Below, piece after piece: positions 1 to 20,773 of a DNA stretch of 22,875 bases. The stretch's first letter is position 1; every line of letters begins with the position of its first letter. This DNA comes from a virus. Made by a program: the position numbers and the translations under genes. The notes under the pieces were generated by a model, which did not search any database, was not told the origin of the DNA, and was given only the letters and a program-made list of their open reading frames with translations. The stretch lies in the UHGV virus genome UHGV-0065784; one strand, given 5' to 3'.

Positions 1-259
1 CGAGCAACTTGCCCCCGCCTGTGACGCCGAAATGGTTGCCGATGTGCGCGTACTGGGGGCAATCGGCGTGGTCGAAACCACTCGTCCGGTGAATATGGCA
101 GCGCTGCAAAAATTCTTTGTCGAACAGGGTGTCTGGATCCGGCCTTTTGGCAAACTGATTTACCTGATGCCGCCCTATATTATTCTCCCGCAACAGTTGC
201 AGCGTCTGACCGCAGCGGTTAACCGTGCGGTGCAGGATGAAACATTTTTTTGCCAATAA
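1..259 (+). CDS. bioA: 3' end of adenosylmethionine-8-amino-7-oxononanoate aminotransferase gene, 5' part outside window
   Basis: Reading frame is open from window base 2 through the stop at 257-259; C-terminal peptide ...[20 protein letters not shown]...[31 protein letters not shown] matches my recollection of E. coli BioA; synteny with ybhB downstream. Confidence 0.85.
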
Positions 260-470
260 CGGGAAGTCAGCGTGAGGGTTTCTGGCTACACTTTCTGCAA
301 ACAAGAAAGGAGGGCTCTTGACGGCTCCCCGCCCTGAATGACGGGGATTCCCACTTCAACAAGCCGAACCTAAGCCGCGTGCTGCGATTCAGGGTTTACA
401 GGCTCTCCGTGGGCTAACACTGCCAGCCCGGCAGCTTTAATATTACGTGCCGCGTTAATGTCGCGATCAT
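260..470 (-). ncRNA. Predicted omega-RNA (right-end RNA) region of the TnpB element, overlapping tnpB 3' end and downstream right end; extent not determined
   Basis: Established TnpB biology places the guide-RNA scaffold at the 3' end of tnpB and the right end; region contains several short stem-loops (291-309, 327-346). No folding or covariance model was run. Confidence 0.3.
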
Positions 471-1500
471 GGTCTGCGCCGCATTCAGGGCAGTGCCATT
501 TACGAACATTAAGAGGCATTTTTTGCATGGTGAAACCGCAGCAACTACAGCATTTTGAGGACGGTAAATACTGGTCAATGGCGACCACTGACCGCCCGGC
601 CCATTTGCCTTTGTACTGGAGCTGGCGAACAAGTTCGCTCCAGCCTGCGTCAGCTATTGCTTTAGACAGCTTCGGGTTGCGGATCATGTTTTTCACCTTG
701 AGGGATTCGACGCAAACAACTTGGTTTTCGTTAATCAGTTTGCGGGACAACTTGTGCAGATTGTCCATCCGGCAATCGGCGATTTTCGCGTGGAGTCGGG
801 CGACCTTTAAGCGGGCTTTAATTCGGTTTCTTGAGCCTTTTTGCTTCCTGCTTAAACGTCGCTGTAGCAGCGTTAATCGCTTCGCATATTTAGCGGTGTG
901 GCGGGGATTGTCGGTTTTGAATCCGGTATCGGTGACGAATAAATCTTTTAAGCCCACATCAATGCCGACCGTTTTAGCGGTAACAGGCATTGATACAGGT
1001 TCAAACTCACACAGGCAGGAAACAAAGTACCTGCCAGCGCTATCTCTGGAAATGGTAACGGTTGACGGCGCAGATGGTAATTCTCGACTCCAGCGAACAT
1101 CCAGCGGCGACTTGCTCTTTGCTATATACAACTCGCCGTCACGGTGTTTAAACGCGCTGGCAGTGAACTCAGCCACCTGTTTGTGCCGTTTGCTTTTGAA
1201 AGCCGGATATGCAGCTCGTCCGGCAAAGAAGTTAGCAAAGGCGGCTTGTTGGTGGCGCAACGACTGCTGGAGGGGAACGCAGGAAACATCATTCAGCCAT
1301 ATGTATTCAGGCTCTTTTTTGAGCGCCGTAAGGCGAGCGTTGGCCTGTAGATAACCGATCTTTTCTTTTCGCTCGTAGTACGCATCGGTACGCCAACGAA
1401 GGATGGAATTGTAGACGAAGCGCACACAGCCAAACGTCTGAGCTAAAAGCTCAGCCTGCTCAGTTGTCGGGTAAAACCGGTATTTATATGCGCGTTTCAT
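370..1500 (-). CDS. tnpB: TnpB (IS605 OrfB-family RNA-guided nuclease, RuvC-like plus zinc finger)
   Basis: 376-aa ORF; N-terminal OrfB-type region, RuvC-I-like GIDVGLKD, RuvC-II-like VVCVESL, zinc finger CCSCCG...CPECG, RuvC-III-like HDRDINAARNI; catalytic D/E/D positions appear intact. Confidence 0.9.
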   Translation of the reverse strand: MKRAYKYRFYPTTEQAELLAQTFGCVRFVYNSILRWRTDAYYERKEKIGYLQANARLTALKKEPEYIWLNDVSCVPLQQSLRHQQAAFANFFAGRAAYPAFKSKRHKQVAEFTASAFKHRDGELYIAKSKSPLDVRWSRELPSAPSTVTISRDSAGRYFVSCLCEFEPVSMPVTAKTVGIDVGLKDLFVTDTGFKTDNPRHTAKYAKRLTLLQRRLSRKQKGSRNRIKARLKVARLHAKIADCRMDNLHKLSRKLINENQVVCVESLKVKNMIRNPKLSKAIADAGWSELVRQLQYKGKWAGRSVVAIDQYLPSSKCCSCCGFTMQKMPLNVRKWHCPECGADHDRDINAARNIKAAGLAVLAHGEPVNPESQHAA

Positions 1501-1608
1501 GTGTTCACATACTAAAGAGGAAAATGTGATTATGCAAAGTACAGTTAGTCGGAAAACCGCCTCCTTTCCTCCCCGGTCTGAAGGCCGAGGTTTCCCGGAG
1601 GCATTCTA

Positions 1609-2085
1609 ATGAAACTCATCAGTAACGATCTGCGCGATGGCGATAAGCTGCCGCATCGTCATGTCTTTAACGGCATGGGTTACGATGGCGATAATATTTC
1701 ACCGCATCTGGCGTGGGATGATGTTCCTGCGGGAACGAAAAGTTTTGTTGTCACCTGCTATGACCCGGATGCGCCAACCGGCTCCGGCTGGTGGCACTGG
1801 GTAGTTGTTAATTTACCCGCTGATACCCGCGTATTACCGCAAGGGTTTGGCTCTGGTCTGGTAGCTATGCCAGACGGCGTTTTGCAGACGCGTACCGACT
1901 TTGGTAAAACCGGGTACGATGGCGCAGCGCCGCCGAAAGGCGAAACCCATCGCTACATTTTTACCGTTCACGCGCTGGATGTAGAACGTATTGATGTCGA
2001 TGAAGGTGCCAGCGGCGCGATGGTCGGGTTCAACGTTCATTTTCACTCTCTGGCGAGTGCCTCGATTACTGCGATGTTTAGTTAA
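1609..2085 (+). CDS. ybhB: PEBP-family (kinase-inhibitor-like) protein YbhB
   Basis: 158-aa ORF with GGAGG 7 nt upstream of ATG; sequence matches my recollection of E. coli YbhB (MKLISNDLRDGDKLPHRH...), PEBP-like motifs. Confidence 0.9.
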   Translation: MKLISNDLRDGDKLPHRHVFNGMGYDGDNISPHLAWDDVPAGTKSFVVTCYDPDAPTGSGWWHWVVVNLPADTRVLPQGFGSGLVAMPDGVLQTRTDFGKTGYDGAAPPKGETHRYIFTVHALDVERIDVDEGASGAMVGFNVHFHSLASASITAMFS

Positions 2086-2093
2086 TCACTCTG

Positions 2094-2116
2094 CCAGATG
2101 GCGCAATGCCATCTGG
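2094..2116 (+). other. Perfect 9-bp-stem hairpin (ccagatggc-gcaat-gccatctgg) just downstream of ybhB stop
   Basis: Seen directly; not followed by a clear T-run, so terminator function is uncertain. Confidence 0.3.
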
Positions 2117-2175
2117 TATCACTTAAAGGTATTAAAAACAACTTTTTGTCTTTTTACCTTCCCGTTTCGCTCAAG

Positions 2176-2190
2176 TTAGTATAAAAAAGC
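2176..2190 (-). other. Lambda-type attachment site core (overlap region O) of an attR (P-O-B') junction
   Basis: ttagtataaaaaagc is the reverse complement of the lambda core GCTTTTTTATACTAA; the flanking ttcccgtttcgctcaag on the ybhB side matches the bacterial B' arm as I remember it; phage-derived sequence on the other side. Confidence 0.8.
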
Positions 2191-2330
2191 TGAACAAGAA
2201 ACAGTAAAAAACATTAATATCAATGTGTTATGAAGATTTTTGTCTAAATAATAGACTACATAATACTGCAAAACACAGCATGTGCAGTCACTATGAATCA
2301 ACTACTTAGATGGTATTAGTGACCTGTAAC
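2191..2330 (-). promoter_or_regulatory. attP P-arm remnant with Int arm-type binding sites (lambda-like)
   Basis: Reverse complement reads ...CTGTTACAGGTCACTAATACCATCTAAGTAGTTGATTCATAGTGACTGCA..., near-identical to the lambda P arm as I recall it; arm-type motifs GCAGTCACTATG (2284-2295) and AGGTCACTAAT (2315-2327); sequence nearer the core is more diverged from lambda. Confidence 0.7.
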
Positions 2331-2533
2331 AGAGCATTAGCGCAAGGTGATTTTTGTCTTCTTGCGCTAATTTTTTGTCATCAGAACATATCGCACTCCA
2401 GAGAAGCACAAAGCCTTGTGTGTCTCATAGGCTATGAAACAATCATTTTACATGGTTACTTCACTACTTCCGCACAATATGATATCGTTCACAATCTAAA
2501 AATATTAATAATTTATCCATTACCGCGGTTAAT

Positions 2534-2559
2534 GCCCGTCGCTTCCAACGGGCTTTTTT
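2534..2559 (+). terminator. Rho-independent terminator, likely the tI/sib-region remnant of a lambda-like b-region
   Basis: gcccgt-cgcttcca-acgggc stem-loop followed by TTTTTT on the plus strand; lies in lambda-like sequence beyond the P arm, where lambda has tI. Confidence 0.5.
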
Positions 2560-2705
2560 GTAAATTATATTTTTATTACCTTATATTAATATTGGTAATA
2601 TGTCTGCATGATGTTTTATATTTAATTTCGTTGACGTCAATATTTTTTGCCAATGTACTTACTTCTTTATGTGAGCAGTTCATATTTTTGACGCCAACGA
2701 AACAT

Positions 2706-5651
2706 TTAGTGCTTCCCTTCTATTAAGTCTAACCTAGCTTTTATTCTTTCTATTTCTCTGCGCTGCCATGCCGCCTCGATATAGAATAAGAGATCAGGTC
2801 TGACCCCCCATCTAGATCCTGCTGGCGTTATTTCAACGCGCTCAATGATGTCTTCCATTACCATCACTGGATTATCATCCTCATCAACAATGATGCTCCC
2901 GTCATTATCAGTCAGCGGCATTTCCCTTTGGCCAGTAATGACGTCATCATATACTGCGGGATAATCGTCATAGCAAAGAAAGGCATAGCGGCATGTTGTG
3001 CTTTCTTCTTCCATGAGTCCGTGAGAAATAAGAACATCACGAAGTTGCTGCGCGATTACACCATGATGTATCCTCGCCCCTTCTTCCCCCTTTATAGCGA
3101 CAGCGTTCAGCCATTTATAAGCGATATACCTGACGTCACCCCAGGCATCCAGCAATGCTTCGTCAGGAGAGACCGGCTCTGTCTTTAATGTTCCGTCACT
3201 GGTAATCACAGGATTGGAGCCAAGATAAACTGTCGAGAACCTGTTTCCCGGACCACCAAGAGCATTTACATTATCAAGATAAGGTTTAACATCTCCGTTC
3301 TCAAAAAGATGTTCGAGTGCGTTATATACCGCGCGACGTGGAGTACTGCTTCCGGAACCATGCAACGTTATCATTGCACCATCTGCTGAAGACGTTGTTT
3401 CACCTCCGCTAACGATTAATCTCTGAGCGGTAACATCATCAGACGGTACTTTCTTCGCAATAATGGCGTAATTACCCTCAAGTTTGACTTCCGCGCGAAC
3501 TTGTCCTGATGTACCTGCATGGACAGTCAGTGACTGGACGGCAACATCATCTGTGAAATCAACGGGTACAGGAACCGTCCTCACGCCTGACGTCGACATA
3601 AAAGTAGGAAGCGTTCTGTTAGGAGTGGCTCCGTAGACAAAATCCCTTGAAACAAATTCTTCCTGTTTAATTTTCACCCTGAAACAATACAAATCAGCCG
3701 GGTGACCATCGTGAACATAAGGATATTTTCTGTTGTTATCCCCTATGCTCCATGGGTTTAGAAAGTCTTCCCCACCGAAAATGTAGTACAGCCAGTTGTC
3801 TTTGATACAAACTGAACCAACACCAACCGCAGAGTTAACTATTCCGCCCTGATAAATCTGATCAGTAACATTAACCCACTCTACATTATCCAGACTCCAC
3901 TCATTGACGTTAACTCTGGTCATAAATGTTCTTGGATAATTTCCTGCATAACGGTTATCAGGTTCTCCTCCTTCCCACTCACCAAATGCGCGCTCACTGC
4001 CAAAAATAATCAGCTCATCGCCAACTTTGGCAAAAGGAAGGTTTGAGTGATGAACATTATTTGGGAAGCGAAGAGAATTCCATGATGTACCTAAATCAGA
4101 GCTTCTGTGCAATGAACTACCGGGTTGAGTACTTAATGTCCCCCTGGTCGTCAGATACAGAATGCCATCATAATATTTTACACATGGCTCAGATGCATTC
4201 GCCTCATATTCTACAGGTATGCGTCTGCGAACAAAGCTACCAGGAGAACCGAAAGCATCAGAGAAATAGAGTATCCCAAGCTCGCGTGGATCAATATCAC
4301 CATTATGGTAGCCAACAGCAAAACTGTTATCGCTAATCGTCGCAAAACTGTGAATCTCAGTAACAGGAGTGCTTCCGTCAACAAAAGAAGGAATAGTTCC
4401 AAGACTGGTTTTTCTCCATGGTGACGAGTGAAATGATGTACCAAAACTCCAGTATCTACCCTCGTTATTCTGATCCACATCCTGGGTATTTTGCGTCGTA
4501 ACTGTAAAAGTATTTTTATCAATAACAGTAGTCACCGTCATATTCCCGGTAACACCTGTAACACCAGAGTTTGAGAAGTTGACAAAATCACCAGCAAATA
4601 ATCCGTGATCAGTAATGCGAATATAAGCGACTTGCTGATTTGCTGCTTTCGTTATACCACCATAAACGCGAAGGCTGCGACTCATTGGGCGATCCCACAA
4701 CTCTGCAACCTGCAGTTTATTTCCGCTCACGGTCCGCGTCTCAATTACAGCAAAAAGGCGATTTCTGACAACCCCCATACTCATGCAGTGATAGTTAACT
4801 GTGGGATAGTTTTCATGTAAATCTGTAAGCCATTCCGGCGTTGTCCAGGTCTTCCCGTCATCTCCTGAGCGAACCCATGCAACATGGAGGTTATTTACAC
4901 CATGGCGGTCTCCAGCCATAAAAGGCGCATAGATGACATTGTCATATACAAACGTTTTATCCTGCGTCCAGGCGTTGTACCACGGTGTATCTGTAATTTT
5001 AAATAACTCTCCCTGGATAAAATCTTCAGAAGCATAAAAAAGAGGCTGACCCGGTATTCTCTCAAATAAAAAACGAGCATTTTTAAATCGACTGACATCT
5101 GGAAGAGTTGATACTTTAAAAGTAAGCCCTCGCCCATCTATCTTTTCACCACCTGTTGCAACAGAAAGTAATTCTGATAGAGCTGATGTGTCATCATGAA
5201 CACCATCACCAATAGCCCCCCAACCTCTTACATCATAACTGTCTCTCCATCTTGCTATCTGAAGTTTTGGGTATTTATTCGCTCCATCTGGGTCTTCTAA
5301 TTGCTGCCGTAACTGATCAGGATCATACTTCAGCACATTAGGAAAATAGAACTGCTGCGCACCATACGCATCATAAACAGCCATAGAATGGCCTTGCACG
5401 GTAACGAATTTGGCAATCTGTCCGTTATATACCGGATATCCAGCAGCGTTAATGATTATTGGTTGCGAAACAGGAATGTGAGAACCGTCTTCGTTCTCTA
5501 CATAAACCTGAATCTGGTTTTCAGGATTTACCGGGTCAGTGTCAATTTTACCGATATAAATTTTGCCATTGGCTACGGCTTTAAAAGAACGCGCCATAGT
5601 GAAGAGTTGCGAAGGCATACTCACTACAACATTGGCTGTAATGTCTGTCAT
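2706..5651 (-). CDS. Tailspike: P22-like N-terminal particle-binding domain, sialidase-like (Asp-box) receptor-degrading domain, C-terminal intramolecular chaperone (S74-type) domain; probable endosialidase
   Basis: 981-aa ORF; N-terminus [43 protein letters not shown]... closely resembles the P22 gp9 head-binding domain; Asp-box motifs SGDDGKTW and SSDLGTSW; C-terminal ~150 aa resemble self-cleaving chaperone domains of endosialidase-type tailspikes; GGAG RBS 8 nt before ATG. Confidence 0.85.
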
Positions 5652-5719
5652 TTAATTTGCTCCAGATACAAGGAATCGCCGCAGCATTGCCACAGTGATG
5701 CATTATTAATCAAACAAAG

Positions 5720-5734
5720 AGACCACTGTGGTCT
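5720..5734. promoter_or_regulatory. 15-bp palindrome AGACCACTGTGGTCT, candidate Mnt-type operator in the mnt/tailspike divergent region
   Basis: Perfect inverted repeat around a single central base, sitting between the divergent starts of mnt (5798) and tailspike (5651); similar in style to the P22 mnt operator as I remember it (GGTCCACGGTGGACC). Confidence 0.55.
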
Positions 5735-5797
5735 TATTGAGGATGCAACCAGCAGATAATAAGATGCCGATCCACTCACAAAAGCGAGGCATCAAGA

Positions 5798-6049
5798 ATG
5801 GGAAGAGATGACCCGCAATTTAATCTGCGGCTACCTTACGAATTAAAGGAAAAACTAAAACAGCGAGCCAAATCCAATGGCCGCTCTCTTAATTCAGAAT
5901 TAGTTCAGATAGTGACTGATGCTGTATCAAAGCCATCCAAAATTTCAGGCTATCGAGACGATGCGGAACGCATCGCTGATGAGCAGTCAGAGCTTGTTAA
6001 GAAGATGGTGTTTGATACGCTGAAGGATTTGTACAAAAAACCCACCTGA
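5798..6049 (+). CDS. mnt: Mnt-like ribbon-helix-helix repressor
   Basis: 83-aa ORF MGRDDPQFNLRLPYELKEKLKQRAKSNGRSLNSELVQIV...DEQSELVKKMVFDTLKDLYKKPT, highly similar to P22 Mnt from memory; GAGG RBS; divergent from the late genes as in P22. Confidence 0.9.
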   Translation: MGRDDPQFNLRLPYELKEKLKQRAKSNGRSLNSELVQIVTDAVSKPSKISGYRDDAERIADEQSELVKKMVFDTLKDLYKKPT

Positions 6050-6066
6050 AGGTGGGTTAATTTTTG
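6041..6066 (+). terminator. Rho-independent terminator overlapping the mnt stop codon
   Basis: cccacc-tgaa-ggtggg stem flanked by an A-run upstream and ttaatttttg downstream. Confidence 0.5.
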
Positions 6067-6148
6067 CATTTACCTGGGCCATATTGACTACTTATAAAAT
6101 GAGATCAATATTTAATCGCCCAATAACGGGTGTATGTTGAGGTATATC

Positions 6149-6328
6149 ATGGCGAAAAAACCAGGTGAAAACACAGGAAAAAACGGCGGAATATACCAAG
6201 AAGTTGGCCCACGCGGCGGTAAGAAAGACAATTTTGCAACCGTCAAGGACAACGAAAGGCTTCCACCAACAACAAAGCCAGGTCATGGCTGGGTATTGGA
6301 TAAGCGAACTCCAGACAGCAAAAAGTAA
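6149..6328 (+). CDS. Small conserved phage protein (59 aa), YjzC-like by motif
   Basis: ATG at 6149 with GAGG 7 nt upstream and a TTGACT -35-like hexamer at 6085-6090; peptide MAKKPGENTGKNGGIYQEVGPRGGKKDNFATVKDNERLPPTTKPGHGWVL... resembles a small-protein family I recall as YjzC-like; the ORF-track start at 6134 is probably a 5-codon over-extension. Confidence 0.6.
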   Translation: MAKKPGENTGKNGGIYQEVGPRGGKKDNFATVKDNERLPPTTKPGHGWVLDKRTPDSKK

Positions 6329-6335
6329 TAATCAA

Positions 6336-6356
6336 GCCGGGTCACTCCGGCTTTTT
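6336..6356. terminator. Putative bidirectional terminator between convergent genes
   Basis: gccgg-gtcact-ccggc stem followed by TTTTT on plus strand and AT-rich on the other side; overlaps the last codons of the minus-strand gene. Confidence 0.45.
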
Positions 6357-6707
6357 GATATGTCGCTCGCAGAACTCAACAAGCCTGCTCATTAAGTAGC
6401 AGTAAGTCTCGTTGGCTCTTCCTGGTTCAACATCAACACCTACCCTTGAGCAGATATCGAATGCCATGTGAGCGCACTCATGGGCAATAGTAGATAGTTT
6501 GCCATTGAACACGCCTATCACATGCAAAACACCATTCTCGCTACTCATTGTATGAGACGCTCCGTTGGCGTCCGAGTCATGCACGTCAACGCCAAGTTTT
6601 TGATGCAGGCGTTGCCATTCTGGAAAGTCTCTACAAAACACAATTGTACCGCTCTCAAAGAGCGGAACGAGCATCTTTGGTACGTTTCCAATGTTAACTT
6701 TTTTCAT
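6342..6707 (-). CDS. Small HExxH protein, possible ImmA/IrrE-like (M78-type) mini metallopeptidase
   Basis: 121-aa ORF with AGGA 4 nt before ATG; motif HECAH followed about 20 residues later by [13 protein letters not shown], reminiscent of the HExxH...E-x-N-x-FA...LL signature of ImmA/IrrE peptidases; family assignment is from motif memory only. Confidence 0.6.
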
Positions 6708-6737
6708 GGTATCCTGCGCAAAACTAAGGAGGTTGGT

Positions 6738-7232
6738 GTGTCTGATTCTATGAGTTACGCTGTGCTAGTTGCCGCAACTCTATTTCTGGGGATAGGGTTG
6801 CAGATTGCGTGGTTCTTTTTTTCTAGTTTTATTAAACGTAAAAGAATTGAATCAAGGATATCTGAGATTTCTATTGCTATAGGGAAAAATGCTGAAAATC
6901 CAGAGAATGAGGCCTGCGCACTGAATTACCTTAAAGAAAAGTTTTCCCCTGAAAAATTTGAAAACAGAATTACTGATGCTCTTGGATTGGTAATATCAGT
7001 AATTCATATGCCACTAAGTTTGCTGATAACAGTGTGGTACTTCGCCATGATCGCCGGAAGAATATTTGGTTTCATGAATATAGAGCCTGTAGTTCTTTGG
7101 GTTCCAATGATACTGCAATTGTTGTTAAGCGTTGCTATCTTTATTTTTTCTGTTTTTATAAAAATTGTCTTCGGAAGATACCCCGGAGAAGCGAAGGGAT
7201 TTAATAAAGAATTCATAAAAACTATAAAATAA
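6738..7232 (+). CDS. Inner-membrane protein with three predicted TM helices at the sieA position of P22-like phages (candidate superinfection-exclusion protein)
   Basis: GTG start at 6738 preceded by AAGGAGG (6726-6732, 5-nt spacer); hydrophobic segments [75 protein letters not shown]; AT-rich; opposite orientation to late genes, between gp16 and mnt as sieA is in P22. No sequence match to SieA could be checked. Confidence 0.65.
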
Positions 7233-7254
7233 ATGCCGTCCTTGGCTTACAGTG

Positions 7255-9096
7255 CTACTGCCGGGTAGCTTCGTTAACTAAGAGCGGGCGCACGGCAGTA
7301 GCCGCCTGATTTAGCGCTCTTTCATAAGCTGGCGTTCCAGCTTTAGTGTTTGCCAGACGTAAGAGCGCATTCCTTGCTGCTTTGGATTCATACAAGCGCA
7401 TCATTGCACCGAAACCAGCCTCAAGCCCCATTGATACGCCAAGAGTCGTAGTTGCGCCAATCGTCCTTATCCTGTTGGCTTGCGATTGCCCCGTCTGAGT
7501 TACTACATTTGCGGTGTCTGATCTTGCTGCTTGCTGTAGAACTTCATGAAGAGCATCAAGTTCTTTCATGTGCTTTCCAGAAAAAATAGTGTTGTAAATT
7601 TCACCGCCTGACTGAGATTTCAGCTTATTAACTTCAGTGATGAACTTGGCTGGAGAGTCACCGGCCTTTTCCGCTATTTTGCTGACGTAAGCTGCACGCA
7701 TAGCATCTTTCCCTTTATCATCAAGTGCGCTCCAGATTCGTTTCACGTCAGATGGTTTTCTGCTTAATACAACGGTATTTATAAGTTCAGGACTGGCTTC
7801 ACTGCTTGCCTTGTTGAGCTTGTTAGCAATGTTTTTATTAAGCACCTTATTATAAACGTTTGCATAATCGGAATTTGCTTTAAGGTATTTTGCTGCGTCT
7901 GAAGCACCGAGGTTTTTGGCAACTGCGTTACGAAGGTCTTTTGACATTGCATTCTCTACCATATTGGTAGCTGCTTTTGCCTGGTTGGGGAAGACCATGG
8001 CATCTCCCTGAACATTAGATCTAAATGCTGTTCTGTGCTGGCGCAAGAGATCAAACGTAACATCCAAATCAGTTGCAGGGTTTGCTAATTCTTCACGTAG
8101 GTTACGCAAGGATGTAAGCAGGTTTTGATTGGCAGAAGTCCCAAGCCGTTCCTGTCTTGCGATCGCTGTATTCAGAGCATTCATGGTATTTGTGGTATCA
8201 ACTGCGGCATTACCCATTTTATTGGTGACGTCATTGATAACAGCGCCAGCGGCATCCTTCCGTCCCCTTAACGTGGTGGTCAGAGATCTCACCACATCAT
8301 CAGGGTTGTACTCACCAAAACGGTCAAAATAATTGCTTACCAGCTTACTACGCGTTGCATATTGCTCCGCTCGCTTTGAGCCTGTCCCGAGCAAAGCCCC
8401 CTCAGCATCTTGAGTAAGTCCGCGAGTGAAAGCATTTTTCGGCGGGATAACATCAGATGTCATTGGTGTCACGCCCATCGATTCTGATGTGGCAATTTTC
8501 TTTGCCACTTCTGGCGCAATATCACCTTTTATAGCCGTTATTCCACGCCCTATTCCCTTTGCTGCTGCGGAAAGAACACCCTGAGCGGCAAGGTTAACTC
8601 CGGCATTTTTAGCTGCATTTTGTGCGAAATCACCTTTCTGATTTGCGGCCTCTGCCAGTGATCCAATAGCCATGCTTCCTGCCGTTCCAACTCCTGGAAC
8701 TAAATACCCGCCAATTGTTTCTCCAGCTTGAGCGTAGGGGTCTGTCGGTCTGTCTACTGGACGATAAACATCATCCAAAACCTTGGGGCCACCAAGCCCC
8801 GGACTGATTGCATTAATCAGACTTGCGCCGCCCTGTAATACGTCAAATGGTATGTTTACCAGACCACGACCAGCCTGTTCTGCAATTTGCCCTGCACTTT
8901 GACCACCAGTGAGCCAATCGCCAGCTTGTTGCATCAATGATGGTTCTTCCCGTGTTGGTGCATTATTGGCCTGATTAACTGTTTGTTGCTGAACAGCCTG
9001 ACCAGCAAAATACTCATCAATGGCGGTGCCAATATCTTCCGTGCTCGTACCATCAGGGAAGGTAAATGTCTTACCGTTTGCAGTTACTTTCATCAT
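7255..9096 (-). CDS. Ejection (injection) protein, P22 gp16-like
   Basis: 613-aa ORF; N-terminus [30 protein letters not shown] resembles P22 gp16 from memory; last gene of the ejection-protein trio; 4-nt overlap with upstream gene. Confidence 0.8.
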
Positions 9097-10469
9097 TCCA
9101 CCGTAAATTGAATGCCTGATTTTGACGTGTAGCTACCTCCTGCTGATTGCTGAGTAGCTGGCTGTTGCCTTGATGATTTCTTCCCGCCATTACCGACATT
9201 AACGTTATATTGCTGGTTGTAATTGTCGGTATATTGCTGAATGTCGCGCATTGATTGTTGCAGTGCTTCAGGGCTTGAGAAATCAACCTGTGGCATACCT
9301 TGAAAATACATCTTTGCTTCTGCAACGGTGTTGATACCGGATGCCCCCATGTCTCTGGCTGCTGCAATGCCCTGATTCTGCATCTTTCCTTGGATTCGCT
9401 GTGCAGCGTTGTATAGTTTCCTCTGATCACCACCAGATGCACGGCTACGAATATCTGCACCAAGAGCAGGAGAACCTGAAGAGCCTGTAATGCCAGTCAT
9501 GAAGCCAAGATCGTCAATTGATGCACCAGAAATTGCATCAAGATCTTTCTTCATTGCGTAATTCTGCGCGCTTGCTGCCGATGTAGCCGGAGCGGCAATA
9601 GAACCAGCAGGAACGCGAACCATATTCCCCTCGTTGTCGATACCTTCGTAGAACGCATTAGCCCCAGCGCCGTGAAGCTTCCCGCCTACCGTTACAGTTC
9701 TGCCATCTGCTAACTGAACTGTACGCTCATTATTCCCAACCGCCCCTTTCATTGATGCTCTCTGCATCGATAAATCCTGACCGCGCATCGTGATATTCTG
9801 ACCACGCGCTGTTAGCGCCTCGCCAGCCTGATTGCTGCGGATTGTCTCTGCCAGTCTGCCTCGGTCAATCTCACGACCAGCTATCTTGTCCTGAACATTG
9901 AAGTAATCAATCGGACCAAGTGCAGCCATTCCAAGGTGATCAACAAACTCTGTGAAACCTTGTGGATTTTGCTGATACATTTTCGCCACATCCAGAGGGT
10001 CTACTCCGGCACGAGTAAGCTCAGATGAGTTGTTCTGCAACCATGACATCATGGCTTCTGGAGATGAAGCTGCGAGTCTGGCACTTGCTGCCAGTGTACC
10101 GACAGTGGAACGCTGGTCTTCATCGACAAATTTCATGCCGTTTCTTACAGCGTCAAGCTGCTCAGGATACTGTGATGCCAGCTTTCGCATTGCATCGCGG
10201 TCACCAGATGTATATGCATCAGCATAAGCCTGCTGAAACTCTTGCTGTCGCTTCTGCTGATCCATCTGCTTATACATATCCATGACAGATGAAATGCCCT
10301 GTAAAGCCTGCAAGCCAACGTTATTACGTCCTGAACGCTCCATCTCGTTATTCTGTCGAATGTATGCAAGCGTGGCGTCTGCATCACTTGCTCTTGGAGC
10401 GTTGGAGTTCATGCCGCCTAACCCGGCAAGAAGCGCGCCTGAATTACCAGCCTGTTGCCATGTAGCCAA
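9093..10469 (-). CDS. Ejection protein, P22 gp20-like
   Basis: 458-aa ORF in the gp7-gp20-gp16 position; size close to P22 gp20; translationally coupled to gp16. Confidence 0.75.
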
Positions 10470-10481
10470 GAGACACCTCCA

Positions 10482-11135
10482 TTAAAAAAGTGAACCAAGA
10501 AGACCGACGCCAGCACCAATTGCTGTACCCCAACCAGGCATGATTGCAGTACCTGCAGCTGCACCTGCTGCCGCTCCACCCAAGGCGCTCTGAAATCCTG
10601 ATGGTTTATTCGCATTAGCCGCAGATGCTGCCGCCTGCTGTTGATACAATTGGCTGACGTTGTTGGCATAGTTCTGCCCGGCGTTTGCCTGACCTGTAAG
10701 AGCGCCAAGGCCGATATTTGCCAGATTGTTGTAGTTGTTCATCTGACCTGACAGCCAGTTTTGACCGAGTGTAGGTGCGATTGCTGCTAACTGGTTTCCT
10801 GTTGCTGTAGAGCCTAATCCACCAGTTGCCTCTGCTGCTGCCAGACTCTGATAGCGCGCCTGCCCTGCAAGGTCTTTATACTGCTGAGAGTTGTAATACT
10901 GGTTAAGCGCCTGACCTTGCCCCTGAAGAGAGGAAAGATTCTGCAACTGTGATACGTACTGCTGAGCGAGTGGCGTGAACGGTGCAAGGTTTTGCATGTT
11001 CGTCTGCCACATTTCACGCTGCAGTTCGATGCCCTTTTCAGTTGCGCGGGCCTGCTCTTTTGCTCCGCTATCACTGCCACCTTTGCAGTAAACAGCTTTG
11101 CTGAGGTGCTTATTGGCAATCTGGAAAATTAACAT
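10482..11135 (-). CDS. Ejection protein, P22 gp7-like
   Basis: 217-aa ORF with GAGGAG RBS 7 nt upstream; Q/N/A/G-rich low-complexity sequence and hydrophobic Gly/Ala-rich C-terminus typical of gp7; position after gp14. Confidence 0.7.
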   Translation of the reverse strand: MLIFQIANKHLSKAVYCKGGSDSGAKEQARATEKGIELQREMWQTNMQNLAPFTPLAQQYVSQLQNLSSLQGQGQALNQYYNSQQYKDLAGQARYQSLAAAEATGGLGSTATGNQLAAIAPTLGQNWLSGQMNNYNNLANIGLGALTGQANAGQNYANNVSQLYQQQAAASAANANKPSGFQSALGGAAAGAAAGTAIMPGWGTAIGAGVGLLGSLF

Positions 11136-11592
11136 TCGTTAGCTCCTCGTATTTTGAGCGCGGTAACTGATAAATCGTGATGCCTACAGGCTTTCCATTG
11201 CTGGTATAAGCATCATCAAGGTGACCAACACGGGTAGCGCCAAGCAAACGGATAATTGCCCGTCCGTATTTCGTGGTGTCAGGAACCATAGTGATGCTGT
11301 TAAGGAATGGTGAGTTTTCGAGAAGCCATTTGCAGAATAATCGATGCCCTTGCAGTGCATATTCGCCACGGAATCCGGGGTCGTACACCGCATGGCATTC
11401 AACAACGCTATGCCAGAAGTTACGCACTTCATGCACTCCGACCAGCATCAGTCCTTCGTAGATGCCGAGGTATACCGCATCAGGCTTGATGTAGTATTTG
11501 TCTCCACTGTCTACGATATTTCCCGTGTTTGCCGGGTTGTTGAGGAATTCTGCAAGCTTCACCGGATTATCGATGAGCTTTATTTCCATCAC
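11110..11592 (-). CDS. Internal head/ejection-associated protein, P22 gp14-like
   Basis: 160-aa ORF; size and position between the needle gene and gp7 match P22 gp14 (161 aa); ATGA overlap with the needle gene. Confidence 0.65.
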
Positions 11593-12437
11593 TGCTCCGC
11601 AATGATTTTGATGGTTGTGGCAGTAAACGCCGCACCATTAGACTGAATGGTTAACGTGCTGCCATTTGTGGCAAGAAAGCCGTCTTTATCAACGCTGAAG
11701 AACGTAGCTAACAAGATGTTATCGGTTGTTGTCGCCGAGTTGCGACTGCTTACCAGTGTGTCAGGAACAGAGCCGGAAAAGGTTAGCTGCATTGACCTGT
11801 TGGCGGTTCCGCTGGGCCACGTCCCGACGATCGACAGCTTGAAGAACAAGGTTTTGTTCTCGTTGAACACAACCATCTTGTTGTTAACGGTGTCGAAGAA
11901 TGGTGCCAACGTGCCGGATGATGGCGTGAGCGTTTTCAGCAGGCTAACAAGGTTGGTCGGCGCTGTCGGGATGGTTACAGATACACCAGAGTAAACAACC
12001 TCTGACTTTTTGCGAGTAGTGGCATACTCCAGAGCATCGATGCGCGTTTCATGGTCTGAAACCTGCGATTCCAGCGACTGAACTCTGGTATCAAGCGAGG
12101 CAATATCGCTTTCATTCTGAGCTATTCGTGTTTCATGTTCCTGAAGAGTTGATTCTGCCTGGCTGATTCGCTCCTCATGATTAACAAGCGTTGCTTCCGC
12201 AGCAGAAATTCGCTGCTCATGGTCAGCGAGAATCACATCCTGCTCATCGTTCCTGACCTGTGCATCATAAGCGCCCTGACCAGCCTGATTTGCCTTCCCG
12301 GCGATTGCACCGACATCAGCTCCCTGATTTATGACATATAGTAGGTAAGACTGGCTGAATATATTGCGTGGCAAAATTGAAGCATCAAGGCGCGTAGCCT
12401 GAACCACAACAGGATCATTCAGTGATGAATCAACCAT
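11589..12437 (-). CDS. Tail needle (P22 gp26-like) with C-terminal knob extension
   Basis: N-terminus [68 protein letters not shown] closely resembles P22 gp26; coiled-coil heptads (HE.RI repeats); extra ~100-aa C-terminal domain as in Sf6/HK620-type needles; TAATG stop/start overlap with gp10. Confidence 0.85.
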
Positions 12438-13855
12438 TACTCAATCCTTATCTGGCAGCCAGACAGAGTGACAGGTGACTTCGTGATAACGCGCAATTTG
12501 AAGCCGACATTTTTCCTGATGCGCCCGACTCGCTTCCACAAAACACGTTTGTCGTAAACGAACGGTTCATTCTGTTCAATCATCTGCTCACGTCCGTAAT
12601 TGATTCCGTCAGTGGTTGCAGAGAGGAACAGGCGGTCAGCGTACTGCGCAACGCCAGTTGAAGATTCAACCTCAAGGTCGAACACTCTTGCGTTATCCGC
12701 TTTGAACAACGGAGTAAACAACAGGTGTTCCTGTTGCTTGTCGTACTGGCTGCTGATATCGAACTGCAATTTGCCGATAACCGATTCCAGCTTATCGCCG
12801 CACGTTATCTGATTGCCTTCGTAAATGAAGTCGATAGCGCGGTACACATCGTCATACAGGCCTGTTTTCAACACACACCATTGCGGACCATTGGCGCTTG
12901 AAGATGCGTCGTATACGAGGACGTGGCGCGGAAGATGGATAATCAGCAACTCATGAGCATCAAACCGCAACGATTCCATCACGCCATCAGCCAGTTCATC
13001 AGCAGTGTAGGAGCGGAGGATTTTCTCAATGCTCGCGCTGGCGATTGGTGACACCTGACCGGAGCCGATGATGTATACAGACGGCGCACCTGTTGCCGGA
13101 TTGCTGATGAACGCATACGAATCAGCAAACGGCGTTTTGCAGTAGGTTCCGGCAATCCCTTTCTGCACCATCAGTGATGGCTGTGCGACATACAAAGCGG
13201 CACCAACGGTGGTTGCACCAGTCAGGGAGAAATATTCAATCGTCGATGAACCAAAGCAGACGATGAAGTCTCGCCATGTACCTATGCCGATGATGCCGTC
13301 CGGCTGCGATTCTGCGCGATATTGTGCGCTGTAACGGTCAGGATGCGATTCGTCTTCAAGGTCAGTGATAAACCATGAATCAGTACCGTCTTTTGACCAC
13401 GCATAACGCCCACGTAAACGCGTAATGTCACGGACCGAACCTAACTCATACTGCGTGAATCCGCTGTCTGCAGGCCAGTTTGATACGGTTTTAACCGTGC
13501 CATCATAGCGATACTCGACCAGTTGACCATTAACGCCTACCGCCTGTGATGTCCGACCATGCGCCATTGATACACGACCACTTCCGGAAACATCACCGAC
13601 TTCACTTTCTCCTTTGTAGAGCTTGCCACCACACACGCGATAAACAGCATTCTGCGCCATGTTGTACTCGACTCCGCGCGATACACCGTTTACATCAGAG
13701 CGTTTGGCAATGCCCGGGAATGAGCGAAGATATCCGCTGATGTTAAGGATTTCTTTGGGGGTTGCCAGCATATTCACTGGCAGATAGTCGATATAGTCGG
13801 CGTTTCGAAAGTCTTTGCCGACACCTTTCATAAGCGGAAGTTGCTGAATAGGCAT
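12437..13855 (-). CDS. Tail hub / tail accessory protein, P22 gp10-like
   Basis: 472-aa ORF, same length as P22 gp10 and in the gp4-gp10-gp26 position. Confidence 0.8.
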
Positions 13856-13863
13856 TTATTCAC

Positions 13864-14346
13864 CTATGCGTTTGGGATATCGCCATCAATCAGAGGGAGA
13901 TCGCCTGGATAATATCGGTCAGATGTAAACACGTCATATTTATTACCCTGTCCTACAGGAAAATCTCCACGTCGTCGCATTGAAGGAACAACCAGAGTGT
14001 CGGTCATCAAGGCATCATATGAGCGTTGGGCGTTACTGAGAACTTGCGAAGTTGGCTCAAGGCTGTAATCAGATAGCATTCTCAGCAATAACTGATAGCC
14101 TACTGCGTGTTTGTATTTTCTTGGAAGACCTGACTCATCATCAGGTAATGGCTGCTCATCTCCAGTTGCGAAAGCGTAACCAATGTCGCCGGGGTTAATC
14201 ATCCACTCGGACATCATATCTTCCAGATCATTTACACCATCTTCAATTGATTGCGGCTCAACATCAGTCAGCGATGCATTAGAAGCAATAGCAAACTTAC
14301 GAAGCGCAAAAAGGACGATCTCACCCTTTGTCAGTACTGTTGCCAT
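13864..14346 (-). CDS. Head completion / tail adaptor protein, P22 gp4-like
   Basis: 160-aa ORF; motifs SLTDVEPQS and DLEDMMSEW resemble P22 gp4 from memory; AAGG RBS. Confidence 0.8.
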   Translation of the reverse strand: MATVLTKGEIVLFALRKFAIASNASLTDVEPQSIEDGVNDLEDMMSEWMINPGDIGYAFATGDEQPLPDDESGLPRKYKHAVGYQLLLRMLSDYSLEPTSQVLSNAQRSYDALMTDTLVVPSMRRRGDFPVGQGNKYDVFTSDRYYPGDLPLIDGDIPNA

Positions 14347-14506
14347 TGTCTGCCGCCTTACTACCTCGCTTACTGGTCGGTTTCAATTCATCAACTGAGG
14401 CAACAAAGCCCAACTTTTCGAAAAACTGGAAGTCTTTTTCTGCGATAACGGCCTGTACATGTCCTGATTCGTTATCTGCGGCAAGGAATACACTCATGCG
14501 ATCCAT
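14321..14506 (-). CDS. Small hypothetical protein between coat and gp4
   Basis: 61-aa ORF with AGGA 6 nt upstream of ATG, immediately after the coat terminator; overlaps the gp4 start by 26 nt. Confidence 0.45.
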   Translation of the reverse strand: MDRMSVFLAADNESGHVQAVIAEKDFQFFEKLGFVASVDELKPTSKRGSKAADNGNSTDKG

Positions 14507-14524
14507 ATTGTTTCCTTAAAACAT

Positions 14525-14544
14525 AAAAGGGGCGTAAGCCCCCT
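14525..14544 (-). terminator. Rho-independent terminator/attenuator after the coat gene
   Basis: GC-rich 8-bp stem aagggggc-gtaa-gccccctt; on the minus strand it is followed by ttttatgttttaa, just 3' of the coat stop. Confidence 0.5.
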
Positions 14545-14549
14545 TGTTA

Positions 14550-15821
14550 TTACGGATTACCGAAGAACTGACCGCCCATGTGAGGGTTAAAGCACACATA
14601 TGCAGGCAGTAAGTCGAAGCGCATTTTTTGCACGTTGGCATCGCCATCTGCGTATTTATGTACGCGGATGGAGAAACCTTCATATGTTGCAACAGCAGAA
14701 TCAATACTGTGCAGTTTCGGTAGTGGGATAGAGCCAAGTCCACAGAAGAACTTGTTATAGAACAGGTTTGGCTTCATTGTCTGGCTAGCAGTGCCTCCCA
14801 CAGATACGGCATCGCCTGCCGCTACCTGACGACTTACAGAGTTGTACTGCGGGTTTGTAGTGTCATAAATCGGAACACCAGAAAGCGTAACCGTCACATC
14901 GCCACTGCTGTCTGAATTAGCATCAGCAGTAACCGTTGCAGTGAAGCTAATTGGTGTGGCTCCGTTATACAACGCCTGTTTGGTCTGCTGTTGCAGCCAG
15001 TAGGTATTGGTGAATTTAACCTGATCACCAGCTTTCAGAAAACCTGTAACGCTGGCTGTCGCTCCGGTCAATGTTACAGTGAACTGGTATGAGTCTTTAA
15101 CTGCGTTATAGGTAACAGTTGGCTGTGTTTTGACTGTCAGTGTTCCGCCAAATGCCCCCTGCGTACGAGAGGCAAGCCCATTAGACATCAGTGCGCGAAT
15201 GCCGCCAAAATTGGTTGGAATCTGCGCATTCTCCCATGCAGTACGAACCAATTGATCTGAAGCGTGCAAACCAGTCTGCGCATCAGCAAGTCGCTGTGCA
15301 GACCATGGATCCATTACAGCATAGTTTTCACCTTCATTAACGCCGAGGTCTTTCAGGAAAGATGCCGTCTGCGCAACATCAGACCATTTGGTGATTGGAG
15401 TATTGGGGCTACCAAGTGACAACGCACCGTTATTCATCATGAAGTGAGCAAGCTCTGTTTCAAGGTCGGTAACGATTCGCTGGCGAACCGGCGCGAGAAT
15501 TTCTTCCAGTTGGTTAAGCTTGATCGCTTCCTCCAGTTGCTGATATTCAACAGCAACAGTGATGTAGTTACCTACACGCCCCGTAGCTTTACCTGAGATC
15601 AGGTTGTTTTTATTTTGCCCTGAAATATCACCAGTGGGAGTACGGAGGGATGAGAATTGATGCGGACGTTTAAAGCTAACGCTATCGCCAGTGCTGGAGT
15701 TGATTTCACCTGCCAGCAACTGACGGTCTACGGTTTTCGCCAGAACTAAATCTGACATAAAACCCGGAAGGAATTTTTTCAGAACGATTTGACTGACGTT
15801 ACTGTCGAGATTGTTAGGCAT
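14550..15821 (-). CDS. Major capsid (coat) protein, Sf6/P22-group
   Basis: 423-aa ORF directly after the scaffold gene; length matches the Sf6 coat protein as I recall; strong hairpin terminator follows. Confidence 0.85.
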   Translation of the reverse strand: MPNNLDSNVSQIVLKKFLPGFMSDLVLAKTVDRQLLAGEINSSTGDSVSFKRPHQFSSLRTPTGDISGQNKNNLISGKATGRVGNYITVAVEYQQLEEAIKLNQLEEILAPVRQRIVTDLETELAHFMMNNGALSLGSPNTPITKWSDVAQTASFLKDLGVNEGENYAVMDPWSAQRLADAQTGLHASDQLVRTAWENAQIPTNFGGIRALMSNGLASRTQGAFGGTLTVKTQPTVTYNAVKDSYQFTVTLTGATASVTGFLKAGDQVKFTNTYWLQQQTKQALYNGATPISFTATVTADANSDSSGDVTVTLSGVPIYDTTNPQYNSVSRQVAAGDAVSVGGTASQTMKPNLFYNKFFCGLGSIPLPKLHSIDSAVATYEGFSIRVHKYADGDANVQKMRFDLLPAYVCFNPHMGGQFFGNP

Positions 15822-15832
15822 TTATCTTTTCC

Positions 15833-16717
15833 TTATTCGATTTTTGCGCCGGGGCATAATTTGTTGAATTCGTCTTGTTTCGCATCAGCACCGCCACCAC
15901 GTACTTCCGGCTCTGGCTTGATGGCTTTCTTTGGTTTTGGAGCAAGGCTTACCTGTTTGCTAATCTGCCCCAAGAGGAATGCTGCGCGAATTGGATCTGT
16001 CTCAGCGGCTACACGCTGGCGTAATTGCTGGCTCTTACCTAAGCCATAGGCGAGTAGTTCAGAGCCTTCGTCTGCACAGTGAATGATGATTTCCTGCTGA
16101 ATTGGTGGTAGCTCACTAAGAACAATGGCCTCCATTTCCTGATAATCTTTCACAGGAAGTTTTGCTGCCCGTTGTTTATGCGCTTCTACCCTTTGCTGGA
16201 AACGCTGTTGGTATTCCTGTTGCTGACGTAGTTTTTGTTGCTGCTGCTGTTCGACACGGCCTTTTTTCTCATGCCAATCAGTCAATGCCTGTTCAAACGC
16301 CTGTTCGTCATAATCACACGACTCAAGAGTCGGTTTTGGTGGAATAGCGTCTGGTTGTGGTTGCTGATGTTCCGCAGGCTTGGCTAATGCTTCCTCAAGC
16401 TGGCGGCGCAACTCACGGTTTTCTTTCTGTGTTTCTTTGAAGCCTTTGCGAAGATCTTTCACCCATTGCGGTGCAGGTTGCCCGTCAATGTGATCATCAT
16501 CGTCAGCGTTAAGCTGAATTTCTTCATCACCAATACGCAAGGCGTAATCTTCTGGTGTCTCTTCGGTTTTTTCAGGCTCAGTTGCCACCTCTTTACCGTT
16601 GTCATCCTGGCTTTCATTCTCAGGCTGTGACTCTGTTTGGATGATGGTTTCTTCTGCATTTTCCTGTGTTTCAGACAGGCCAATAACCTGACCGTCGATG
16701 ATCAGTTCGTTTTCCAT
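15833..16717 (-). CDS. Scaffolding protein
   Basis: 294-aa acidic, Q/E-rich coiled-coil protein between portal and coat, as P22 gp8. Confidence 0.75.
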   Translation of the reverse strand: MENELIIDGQVIGLSETQENAEETIIQTESQPENESQDDNGKEVATEPEKTEETPEDYALRIGDEEIQLNADDDDHIDGQPAPQWVKDLRKGFKETQKENRELRRQLEEALAKPAEHQQPQPDAIPPKPTLESCDYDEQAFEQALTDWHEKKGRVEQQQQQKLRQQQEYQQRFQQRVEAHKQRAAKLPVKDYQEMEAIVLSELPPIQQEIIIHCADEGSELLAYGLGKSQQLRQRVAAETDPIRAAFLLGQISKQVSLAPKPKKAIKPEPEVRGGGADAKQDEFNKLCPGAKIE

Positions 16718-16730
16718 TGATTACTCCTGG

Positions 16731-18857: not shown

Positions 18858-18859
18858 GT

Positions 18860-20694: not shown

Positions 20695-20699
20695 ATTGA

Positions 20700-20771: not shown

Positions 20772-20773
20772 GT

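Follow-up and report, generated by a model that had tools for sequence, protein, structure and literature searches.

The gene at positions 2706..5651 of the window, by which we mean the whole stretch of 22,875 nucleotides that we analysed, encodes a CUS-3-type tailspike that is predicted to digest the polysialic acid capsule of E. coli K1. We are highly confident that a P22-like temperate phage (Lederbergvirus) targeting E. coli K1 uses it as its receptor-destroying tailspike. The protein combines a P22-type head-binding domain with an endosialidase module and a C-terminal intramolecular chaperone. Gene and ribosome-binding site lie as follows:

2706..5651, minus strand: tailspike gene, 981 amino acids (aa), ATG start, stop codon (2706-2708) included, from the list of open reading frames (ORFs)
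5660..5663, minus strand: GGAG ribosome-binding site, 8 nt upstream of the tailspike ATG, read from the sequence

According to the ORF list, the gene is intact and forms a single uninterrupted frame of 2,946 nt; the computed mass of the precursor is 109.3 kDa. The exact 981-aa protein corresponds to RefSeq WP_187210376.1, which is labelled just 'phage tailspike protein', and is found identically in at least 23 public contigs. Since 970 of its 981 residues are identical to the characterised CUS-3 enzyme and the exact sequence is already present in RefSeq and in contigs, nothing in the tailspike is new. It is an ordinary and well known object of an already characterised type.

The N-terminal part of the protein is formed by the following domain:

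5313..5651, minus strand: P22-type head-binding domain, aa 1-113, with YDPDQ at its end (Pfam PF09008)

The Head_binding model (PF09008) matched aa 1-113 over its full length (model positions 1-113 of 113, E 1e-66), and 86 of the 113 residues (76%) are identical to P22 gp9. This bears out an earlier reading of the sequence alone (the sequence-only reading), which had called the first ~110 residues P22 gp9-like. For this domain, PDB searches returned the N-termini of the P22 and Sf6 tailspikes with E-values from 1e-45 to 1e-65. The tailspikes of P22 (gp9), Sf6 (gp14) and HK620 have this domain in common with the protein studied here, including the YDPDQ hinge, and in each case the gene follows the ejection-protein and immI-like region. 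Their receptor part, however, is a right-handed beta-helix O-antigen endoglycosidase without a detachable chaperone, whereas here a sialidase propeller and a chaperone predicted to cleave itself off stand in place of the beta-helix.

The joint between the modules is sharp (YDPDQ|L): P22-like homology stops at Q113 and K1F-like homology starts at L114. Had two genes been misread as one ORF, or had motifs matched by chance, the chimera would be an artefact. This explanation has practically no chance of being correct, as the switch at Q113/L114 is in frame within one uninterrupted ORF of 2,946 nt, and CUS-3, RefSeq genomes and many contigs carry annotations of the same 981-aa protein. The ORF list, the CUS-3 alignment and the identical protein in contigs thus refute it, and we treat the gene as a genuine fusion.

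Residues 114-817 constitute a complete endosialidase module, built from a beta-propeller of six blades with a beta-barrel nested in it, two Asp-boxes and a stalk:

5016..5312, minus strand: start of the endosialidase module, aa 114-212, consisting of a linker (114-145) and End_N_terminal (146-212; PF12218)
3666..5015, minus strand: catalytic beta-propeller, aa 213-662 (Pfam PF12217)
4845..4868, minus strand: Asp-box 1, SGDDGKTW, aa 262-269, a regex match aligned to SGDDGQTW of endoNF
4434..4682, minus strand: beta-barrel nested in the propeller, aa 324-406 (Pfam PF12195)
4080..4103, minus strand: Asp-box 2, SSDLGTSW, aa 517-524, a regex match aligned to SRDIGQTW of endoNF
3201..3665, minus strand: stalk (End_tail_spike), aa 663-817 (Pfam PF12219)

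All four Pfam models matched at full length: End_N_terminal (aa 146-212, E 9e-37), End_beta_propel (aa 213-662, model positions 1-367 of 367, E 8e-233), End_beta_barrel (aa 324-406, 1-83 of 83, E 1e-46) and End_tail_spike (aa 663-817, 1-160 of 160, E 9e-78). BLASTP aligned aa 114-980 with the K1F endosialidase endoNF (gp17) at 63% identity, beginning at 114/214 (L114 = endoNF L214), and tblastn matches to K1F-like phages also begin at aa 114. PDB entries of endoNF (1v0e, 3gvl) were matched with E = 0, and the identity to matching solved structures was 63-70%. We take the phage endosialidase family of this tailspike to be CAZy GH58. Two Asp-box motifs had already suggested a sialidase-type propeller before any alignment was made. 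Both were recovered by regex, and their alignment with the two Asp-boxes of endoNF shows them to be homologous rather than fortuitous. Furthermore, the catalytic and substrate-binding residues listed for endoNF, H350, R549, E581, R596 and R647 (PMC12632334), are conserved in five of five cases, as H250, R456, E488, R503 and R554 in the alignment.

Beyond these residues and the Asp-boxes, K1F endoNF (PDB 1V0E, 3GVJ-L, 3JU4; chaperone 3GW6) shares with this tailspike the propeller with its nested barrel, the stalk, the chaperone and the Ser-Lys cleavage dyad. The two proteins differ in the N-terminus that attaches them to the particle, which is T7 gp17-like in K1F (aa 1-213) but P22 gp9-like here. 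In addition, the propeller of this tailspike carries a 7-residue insertion (aa 423-429), and its chaperone insert (aa ~900-945) is 8 residues longer than that of endoNF and more divergent.

Comparison with siaK1 of phage CUS-3 (ABQ88383.1 / CAJ29292.1) revealed a protein of 981 aa as well, with the same three-part architecture, which aligns without gaps and is identical in 970 of 981 residues and in 99.1% of nucleotides. The flanks of both genes are common over 47 bp upstream and ~92 bp downstream. Eleven substitutions separate the proteins (I9V, T43P, V59I, T121P, V207A, G454D, A480V, R767G, I807T, V816I and T832A), none of which falls on a catalytic or dyad residue. G454D is located two residues before the catalytic R456 at a variable position (A in K1F), and the D454 allele is common to 720R6 and MS20659. 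The CUS-3 GenBank record refers to PMID 16689790 (Stummeyer et al. 2006) for direct-assay (IDA) evidence of endo-alpha-sialidase activity, and the CUS-3 tailspike has been reported as a modular P22-type/endosialidase protein with endo-N-acetylneuraminidase function (PMC5380687). With 970 of 981 residues identical to this assayed enzyme and all five catalytic residues kept, the polysialic acid (K1) specificity that the sequence-only reading had predicted is probably correct. That reading named CUS-3 only as an alignment check, next to K1F. Our alignments to the two gave 970/981 and 63% identity, respectively, and the protein is essentially the CUS-3 tailspike itself. The modular arrangement of P22-type head-binding domain, endosialidase and chaperone has been known for CUS-3 since 2006; it serves as a textbook example of how tailspikes exchange modules. 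For annotation, the comparison implies that the RefSeq protein could be named a K1-capsule endosialidase with high confidence.

Specificity might still be shifted relative to endoNF, such that O-acetylated polysialic acid is preferred or blocking, or that a K92-type polymer with alternating alpha-2,8/2,9 linkages is recognized; 'K1' would then be an incomplete description. We consider such a shift unlikely. It would fit the identity to endoNF of just 63%, the 7-residue propeller insertion at aa 423-429 and M760, which presumably takes the place of the endoNF stalk-site residue Q853 and which we count for this explanation. Deep mutational scanning showed that stalk and barrel loops tune the discrimination among K1 strains (PMC12632334), and neuO, a gene of the parent phage CUS-3, brings about O-acetylation of the capsule and thereby lowers killing by another K1 phage (PMC13001214). 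However, identity to the CUS-3 enzyme, reported as an endo-N-acetylneuraminidase, reaches 99%, and all catalytic residues of the propeller are conserved. Such a shift would refine the explanation as a K1 capsule-digesting tailspike and would not replace it.

Downstream of the stalk, the protein ends with a chaperone:

2709..3200, minus strand: intramolecular chaperone / Peptidase_S74, aa 818-981, 18.7 kDa (Pfam PF13884)

The Peptidase_S74 model (PF13884) matched aa 818-878 (E 2e-10), and this match begins exactly at the predicted cleavage serine, S818. The tailspike C-terminus also matched the solved endoNF chaperone 3gw6 (E 1e-94), whose S911A position corresponds to S818. In the alignment, both residues of the endoNF dyad S911/K916 are conserved as S818/K823; G864 corresponds to G956, and D819 occupies the N912 position. 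The Ser-Lys dyad of endoNF and the need for N912 and G956 have been described previously, as has MYRF, which has an aspartate (D579) at the N912-equivalent position that is required for its processing (PMC3742443). R773 and D902 represent the endoNF residues R866 and D994 (PMC12632334) and are conserved as well. Solved endoNF chains end at T910, which aligns with T817. Cleavage is thus predicted between T817 and S818, with a mature product of 90.6 kDa and a released one of 18.7 kDa. These matches, together with the conserved dyad, support the chaperone of endosialidase type that had been proposed for the C-terminus. Peptidase S74 domains of K1F endoNF, the GA-1 neck appendage, T5 pb1 and MYRF have the Ser-x4-Lys dyad and the conserved glycine in common with this chaperone. 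It also contains a long insert of endosialidase type, absent from most other Peptidase S74 members, as was noted for the K1F chaperone (PMC3742443).

The gene stands where gene 9 belongs in a complete P22-like late module, which extends from terminase to gp16, sieA and an Arc/Mnt repressor, and all late genes within the window are intact. Among them, PHROG matches identified three P22-type tail hub genes:

13864-14346: head-tail adaptor Ad3
12437-13855: head closure Hc3
11589-12437: tail needle

Based on domain architecture and gene context, we propose that the 109-kDa precursor would trimerise, guided by its C-terminal chaperone domain, which would then remove itself by Ser818/Lys823 autoproteolysis between T817 and S818 to leave the 90.6-kDa mature subunit. 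The P22-type domain (aa 1-113) would anchor the trimer in the tail hub, which consists of the homologues of gp4, gp10 and gp26 encoded nearby. The beta-propeller (H250, R456, E488, R503, R554) would cleave alpha-2,8-polysialic acid, while beta-barrel and stalk would act as extra polymer-binding sites, allowing the virion to penetrate the K1 capsule and reach the outer membrane. Three polysialic acid binding sites are known from endoNF, with the beta-barrel among them (PMC12632334). For this particular allele, activity, cleavage and assembly are what we infer.

Although the tailspike is of CUS-3 type, the prophage is distinct from CUS-3, with virion genes nearer to HK620 and Sf6, integration at the lambda attachment site and no neuO. 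The best matches of 5652-22875 were HK620 (96% identity over 64%) and relatives, and the 15 best matches did not include CUS-3. Apart from the tailspike block, similarity between CUS-3 DNA and the window is confined to short patches. CUS-3 has an ant gene upstream of the tailspike, whereas this prophage has none. In CUS-3, the int/att module adjoins neuO and the tailspike; here, a lambda att core and a lambda-like P-arm are found next to ybhB. Of the CUS-3-type int, a ~100-bp remnant is present in related prophages and none in this window. King et al. in 2007 reportedly placed the CUS-3 integration site at argW.

Between the tailspike gene and the chromosome, we found the following elements:

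2405..2705: CUS-3-type sequence downstream of the tailspike gene, ~300 bp, from the alignment to CUS-3
2614..2624: motif of 11 bp, TAAATATAAAA on the tailspike-sense strand, present once; the neuO-empty junction
2534..2553, plus strand: GC-rich hairpin with a T-run behind it, resembling a terminator, within the segment that comes after int in CUS-3
2191..2418 (approximate limits): P-arm of a lambda-like attP, forming the phage side of attR, with 90% identity to lambda 27499-27742
2176..2190: lambda att core TTAGTATAAAAAAGC (15 bp), reverse complement of GCTTTTTTATACTAA, the prophage/chromosome junction at attR
1609-2085: ybhB, flanking the att core on the chromosome side
32-259: 3' end of bioA, flanking the att core on the chromosome side

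Window positions 2614-5698 are 98.9% and positions 2405-2624 are 99.5% identical to CUS-3. In CUS-3, the neuO cassette is inserted within the sequence equivalent to 2405..2705 and is flanked by two copies of TAAATATAAAA, 853 bp apart. This 853-bp neuO unit is absent from the window, where the 11-bp repeat forms a clean junction. The P-arm at 2191..2418 matches the HK106/HK630 attP as well. From established knowledge of lambda att, we take 2176..2190 to be the att core; its position next to ybhB agrees with the attR call of the sequence-only reading. The same reading held that the gene directly abuts a b-region remnant. Lambda-like DNA is indeed nearby, but ~300 bp of CUS-3-like sequence lie in between, and the lambda-like stretch is mostly attP arm with at most a few tens of bases of b-region. 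Positions 2086-2705 had no exact match among complete E. coli genomes; a JGI metagenome contig of 20,790 bp, equal to window positions 2086-22875, was the single match at 100%. The P-arm (2196-2359) holds nearly all differences from otherwise 99.9%-identical prophages, and a ~100-bp segment that related prophages keep is missing here.

We analysed the capsule (kps) locus in three complete genomes that carry a near-identical prophage at the same site. The K1 kps/neu locus is intact in FDAARGOS_1251; MS20659 has one too, with neuE annotated as frameshifted. The capsule region of strain 998, which carries the same prophage, is non-neu (kps region 2); its two region-2 proteins had no Pfam match and are not neu products. 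Thus, the K1-encapsulated host that the tailspike had suggested was found in two of three lysogens, but not in strain 998. The inference is therefore probabilistic, and carrying the tailspike gene is no proof of a K1 host. A K1 host is likely, not certain, and the tailspike flags the host lineage to the same degree. Once the capsule has been switched, a prophage tailspike can be a misleading guide to the capsule of its host.

Strain 998 also bears on the question whether the prophage is defective or domesticated and carries the gene along as a relic that looks intact but has no present function, its product never becoming part of infectious particles. If strain 998 switched to its non-K1 capsule, the tailspike would be useless for reinfection there. 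The window stops at 22,875 in the lysis region, with the early region and int of this copy outside it, and the differences in the attR P-arm (2196-2359) and the missing ~100-bp segment may be read the same way. However, the ORF is unbroken, the protein is identical in at least 23 contigs, and the late genes in the window are all intact. Moreover, FDAARGOS_1251 contains the same prophage at full length between ybhC and ybhB, 99.94% identical over 20 kb, with a full gene set. It runs from int and xis to the tailspike with repressor, replication, lysis and virion genes all present, and its integrase lies at the far end, adjoining ybhC. The related vB_EcoP-720R6 has been deposited as a phage genome record, though a partial one with flanking host bio and uvrB genes. 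We therefore regard a relic as quite improbable and favour a tailspike in service of a temperate phage.

Tentatively, and with slightly more doubt than confidence, we suggest that this phage belongs to a distinct K1-specific temperate lineage and is not a CUS-3 copy. Its features would be an HK620/Sf6-like virion, a lambda-type att module at gal-bio, the lack of neuO and a CUS-3 tailspike cassette gained by recombination at the YDPDQ hinge and at flanking boundary sequences. If so, the intact tailspike in the non-neu strain 998 would record a capsule switch after lysogeny, and the prophage would be a marker of the former K1 state of its lineage. The lambda-site attachment, the clean absence of neuO and the one non-K1 lysogen add modest detail on cassette movement between P22-like backbones.

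A promoter scan of the 146-bp region upstream of the tailspike gene gave no convincing sigma-70 site, and Rfam and tRNA scans of the whole window gave no matches. An ORF of 138 aa (2310..2726, plus strand) that overlaps the 3' end of the tailspike gene was rejected as probably spurious, because it spans the attP arm and an AT-rich intergenic region and has no RefSeq call. At its position and on its strand, a 351-nt (116-aa) hypothetical protein is annotated in the 720R6 record.

The tailspike is encoded by a single open reading frame, for which the sequence-only reading had proposed a head-binding domain of the P22 type fused to a sialidase-like domain and a C-terminal chaperone. Six Pfam matches were obtained along the protein, all full-length and either non-overlapping or properly nested.

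2706..5651, minus strand: tailspike gene, single ORF with ATG start, 981 codons (ORF list)
8 nt 5' of the ATG, minus strand: ribosome-binding site GGAG (sequence reading)
aa 1-113: Head_binding (Pfam)
aa 146-212: End_N_terminal (Pfam)
aa 213-662: End_beta_propel (Pfam)
aa 324-406: End_beta_barrel, nested within End_beta_propel (Pfam)
aa 663-817: End_tail_spike (Pfam)
from aa 818: Peptidase_S74, the intramolecular chaperone (Pfam)
aa 262-269: Asp-box 1 (motif search)
aa 517-524: Asp-box 2 (motif search)

In pairwise comparisons, P22 gp9 shared 76% identity with aa 1-113, the likeness stopping at ...YDPDQ, and K1F gp17 shared 63% identity from L114 (L214 of endoNF, the K1F endosialidase) through the C-terminus. 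Since the junction between both modules is exact, the chimera is real. It is the published architecture of the CUS-3 tailspike, which has been cited to illustrate how tailspike modules are exchanged (PMC5380687). Searches against solved structures gave analogous results: aa 1-118 matched the Sf6 and P22 tailspike N-termini, aa 145-817 matched endoNF (1V0E, 3GVL and others, E = 0) and aa 698-979 the endoNF chaperone complex 3GW6 (1e-94). Both Asp-boxes aligned column for column with the two of endoNF and are therefore inherited rather than chance motifs. The earlier observation is confirmed and its interpretation supported.

A nucleotide search of a phage collection revealed that CUS-3 carries the gene at 99.1% identity. 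The CUS-3 homologue bears the name siaK1 and the product 'endosialidase tailspike protein', an annotation for which direct-assay evidence is cited (PMID 16689790), and 970 of its 981 residues are identical to ours without gaps. None of the 11 differences falls on a catalytic or autocleavage residue; G454D lies two residues before R456, but K1F has A at position 454, and D454 is common to the alleles of the related phage 720R6 and of strain MS20659. An identical 981-aa sequence has already been deposited as RefSeq WP_187210376.1 and occurs in at least 23 contigs (those read, from 38 index blocks). The protein was known and experimentally characterised before; here it is carried by a mosaic prophage that differs slightly, and the gene itself shows no sign of anything unexpected. 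At the nucleotide level, 15 of the 27 differences from CUS-3 lie in the part coding for the head-binding domain, clustered in the gene's first 175 nt (window 5618-5628 and 5477-5535; gene nt 24-33 and 117-175). This cluster fits a recombination boundary at which the cassette met a different P22-like backbone.

Functional residues were mapped by full-length alignment with K1F and then each checked directly. The endoNF catalytic residues H350, R549, E581, R596 and R647 (PMC12632334) correspond to H250, R456, E488, R503 and R554 and are all conserved. Together with the match to siaK1, this supports the predicted specificity for K1 polysialic acid. R866 and D994 of endoNF, also noted as conserved (PMC12632334), are R773 and D902 here. 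Solved mature endoNF chains stop at T910, and the 3GW6 construct bears S911A; these residues align to T817 and S818, the predicted cleavage site, and the Pfam S74 model likewise starts at aa 818. Autocleavage of endoNF employs a Ser-Lys dyad and requires N912 and G956 (PMC3742443). The dyad is present as S818 and K823, G956 as G864, and N912 is replaced by D819; MYRF has D at this position, where it is needed for processing (PMC3742443). The precursor has a predicted mass of 109.3 kDa (a review table gives 109 kDa for the CUS-3 tailspike, PMC5380687); cleavage would yield a mature chain of 90.6 kDa and release a chaperone of 18.7 kDa.

The gene lies in a CUS-3-like block (2614-5698, 98.9%) that extends from 47 bp 5' of the ATG to 92 bp beyond the stop codon, and a second such block occupies 2405-2624 (99.5%). 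In CUS-3, the O-acetyltransferase cassette neuO sits between the two blocks, whereas it is absent from the window (2405-2705 compared with 9028-9891 of the CUS-3 locus). An 11-bp motif, TAAATATAAAA, occurs in CUS-3 as two copies 853 bp apart flanking neuO, and as one copy at 2614-2624 in the window. Phage 720R6 has a different junction, in which about 21 nt from upstream of neuO are kept. This junction is clearly a deletion, which suggests that neuO loss is recurrent.

Outside the tailspike block, CUS-3 DNA matched the window in short patches only. The remainder comprises a complete P22-like late module, in which the tailspike gene holds the gene-9 position and the docking partners of its N-terminal domain are encoded beside it.

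7255-22743, minus strand: late-module genes for Rz, small and large terminase, portal, scaffold, coat, gp4, gp10, gp26 needle, gp14 and the ejection proteins gp7, gp20 and gp16
after the late module, plus strand: sieA and an Arc/Mnt-type repressor gene

The best matches for 5652-22875 were HK620 (96% identity, covering 64% of this stretch), Sf6 and relatives, and CUS-3 was absent from the best 15; on these alignments the backbone is not that of CUS-3. In the complete genome FDAARGOS_1251 the prophage is complete and 99.94% identical over 20 kb; its int and xis adjoin ybhC, and its tailspike gene adjoins ybhB. A 146-bp region (5652-5797) separates the tailspike gene from the divergent Arc/Mnt-like gene (5798-6049, plus strand) and holds a perfect 15-bp palindrome, AGACCACAGTGGTCT, at 5720-5734, which we take to resemble the P22 Mnt operator. 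Since neither ant nor arc lies between these two genes, an immI-type promoter and operator may directly face the tailspike gene. Between sieA and the Arc/Mnt-like gene, the small immI-region genes are set apart by two strong hairpins (6039-6058 and 6334-6353) that have 8-bp stems and T-runs and look like terminators on either strand.

CUS-3 and neuO have been tied to K1 strains (PMC3046976, PMC13001214), and a K1-encapsulated host had been predicted from the tailspike. The sole exact match to the window was a JGI metagenome contig (Ga0495776_161335, 20,790 bp, sample 3300045988), identical over its entire length to 2086-22875 and ending one base past the ybhB stop codon, and the window probably comes from a metagenome. 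We therefore analysed complete lysogen genomes in which this prophage occupies the identical site and the host flank differs at only one position (window 1-2190). The K1 locus (kpsFEDUCS, neuS, neuE, neuC, neuA, neuB, neuD, kpsTM) is intact in FDAARGOS_1251; MS20659 carries it too, but with neuE annotated as a pseudogene with a frameshift (NZ_CP082073.1; L006, 11065-12214), which could either inactivate the capsule or reflect a sequencing error. Strain 998 (NZ_CM132938.1) carries an intact 981-aa tailspike gene (locus record L017, 3007-5952), but two unrelated genes (1169 and 329 aa) replace neu between kpsT and kpsS (L015, 27800-42053). A Pfam search of these two proteins gave no matches, and the surrounding island is unchanged compared to the other lysogens. 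Strain 998 is a non-K1 lysogen and, on the simplest reading, probably switched capsule after lysogeny. Thus, the host prediction is good, but not guaranteed.

The tailspike gene had also been described as abutting an attR-proximal b-region remnant. The attR assignment was correct, but 'b-region remnant' was overstated: about 300 bp separate the gene from what is essentially an attP arm. Beyond 2405 the DNA resembles the attP P-arm of lambda, with 90% identity to lambda 27499-27742, and is followed by the core and bacterial genes.

2176-2190: 15-bp lambda att core (sequence reading)
after the core, in order: ybhB, a lone IS605-type tnpB, the end of bioA

The lone TnpB (InsQ, IS200/IS605 family, 376 aa; 370-1500, minus strand) is inserted between bioA and ybhB, also in related lysogen genomes; no tnpA was seen, and there were no Rfam matches in the window. 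The prophages of FDAARGOS_1251, MS20659 and strain 998 are otherwise 99.9% identical to the window, and nearly all their differences from it fall in the attR P-arm (21 of 22 differing positions at 2196-2359, within 2196-2404). A segment of about 100 bp found in all three, part of which is a remnant of a CUS-3-type int 3' end, is also missing from the window. The pattern suggests either a local patch of recombination or another attP allele.
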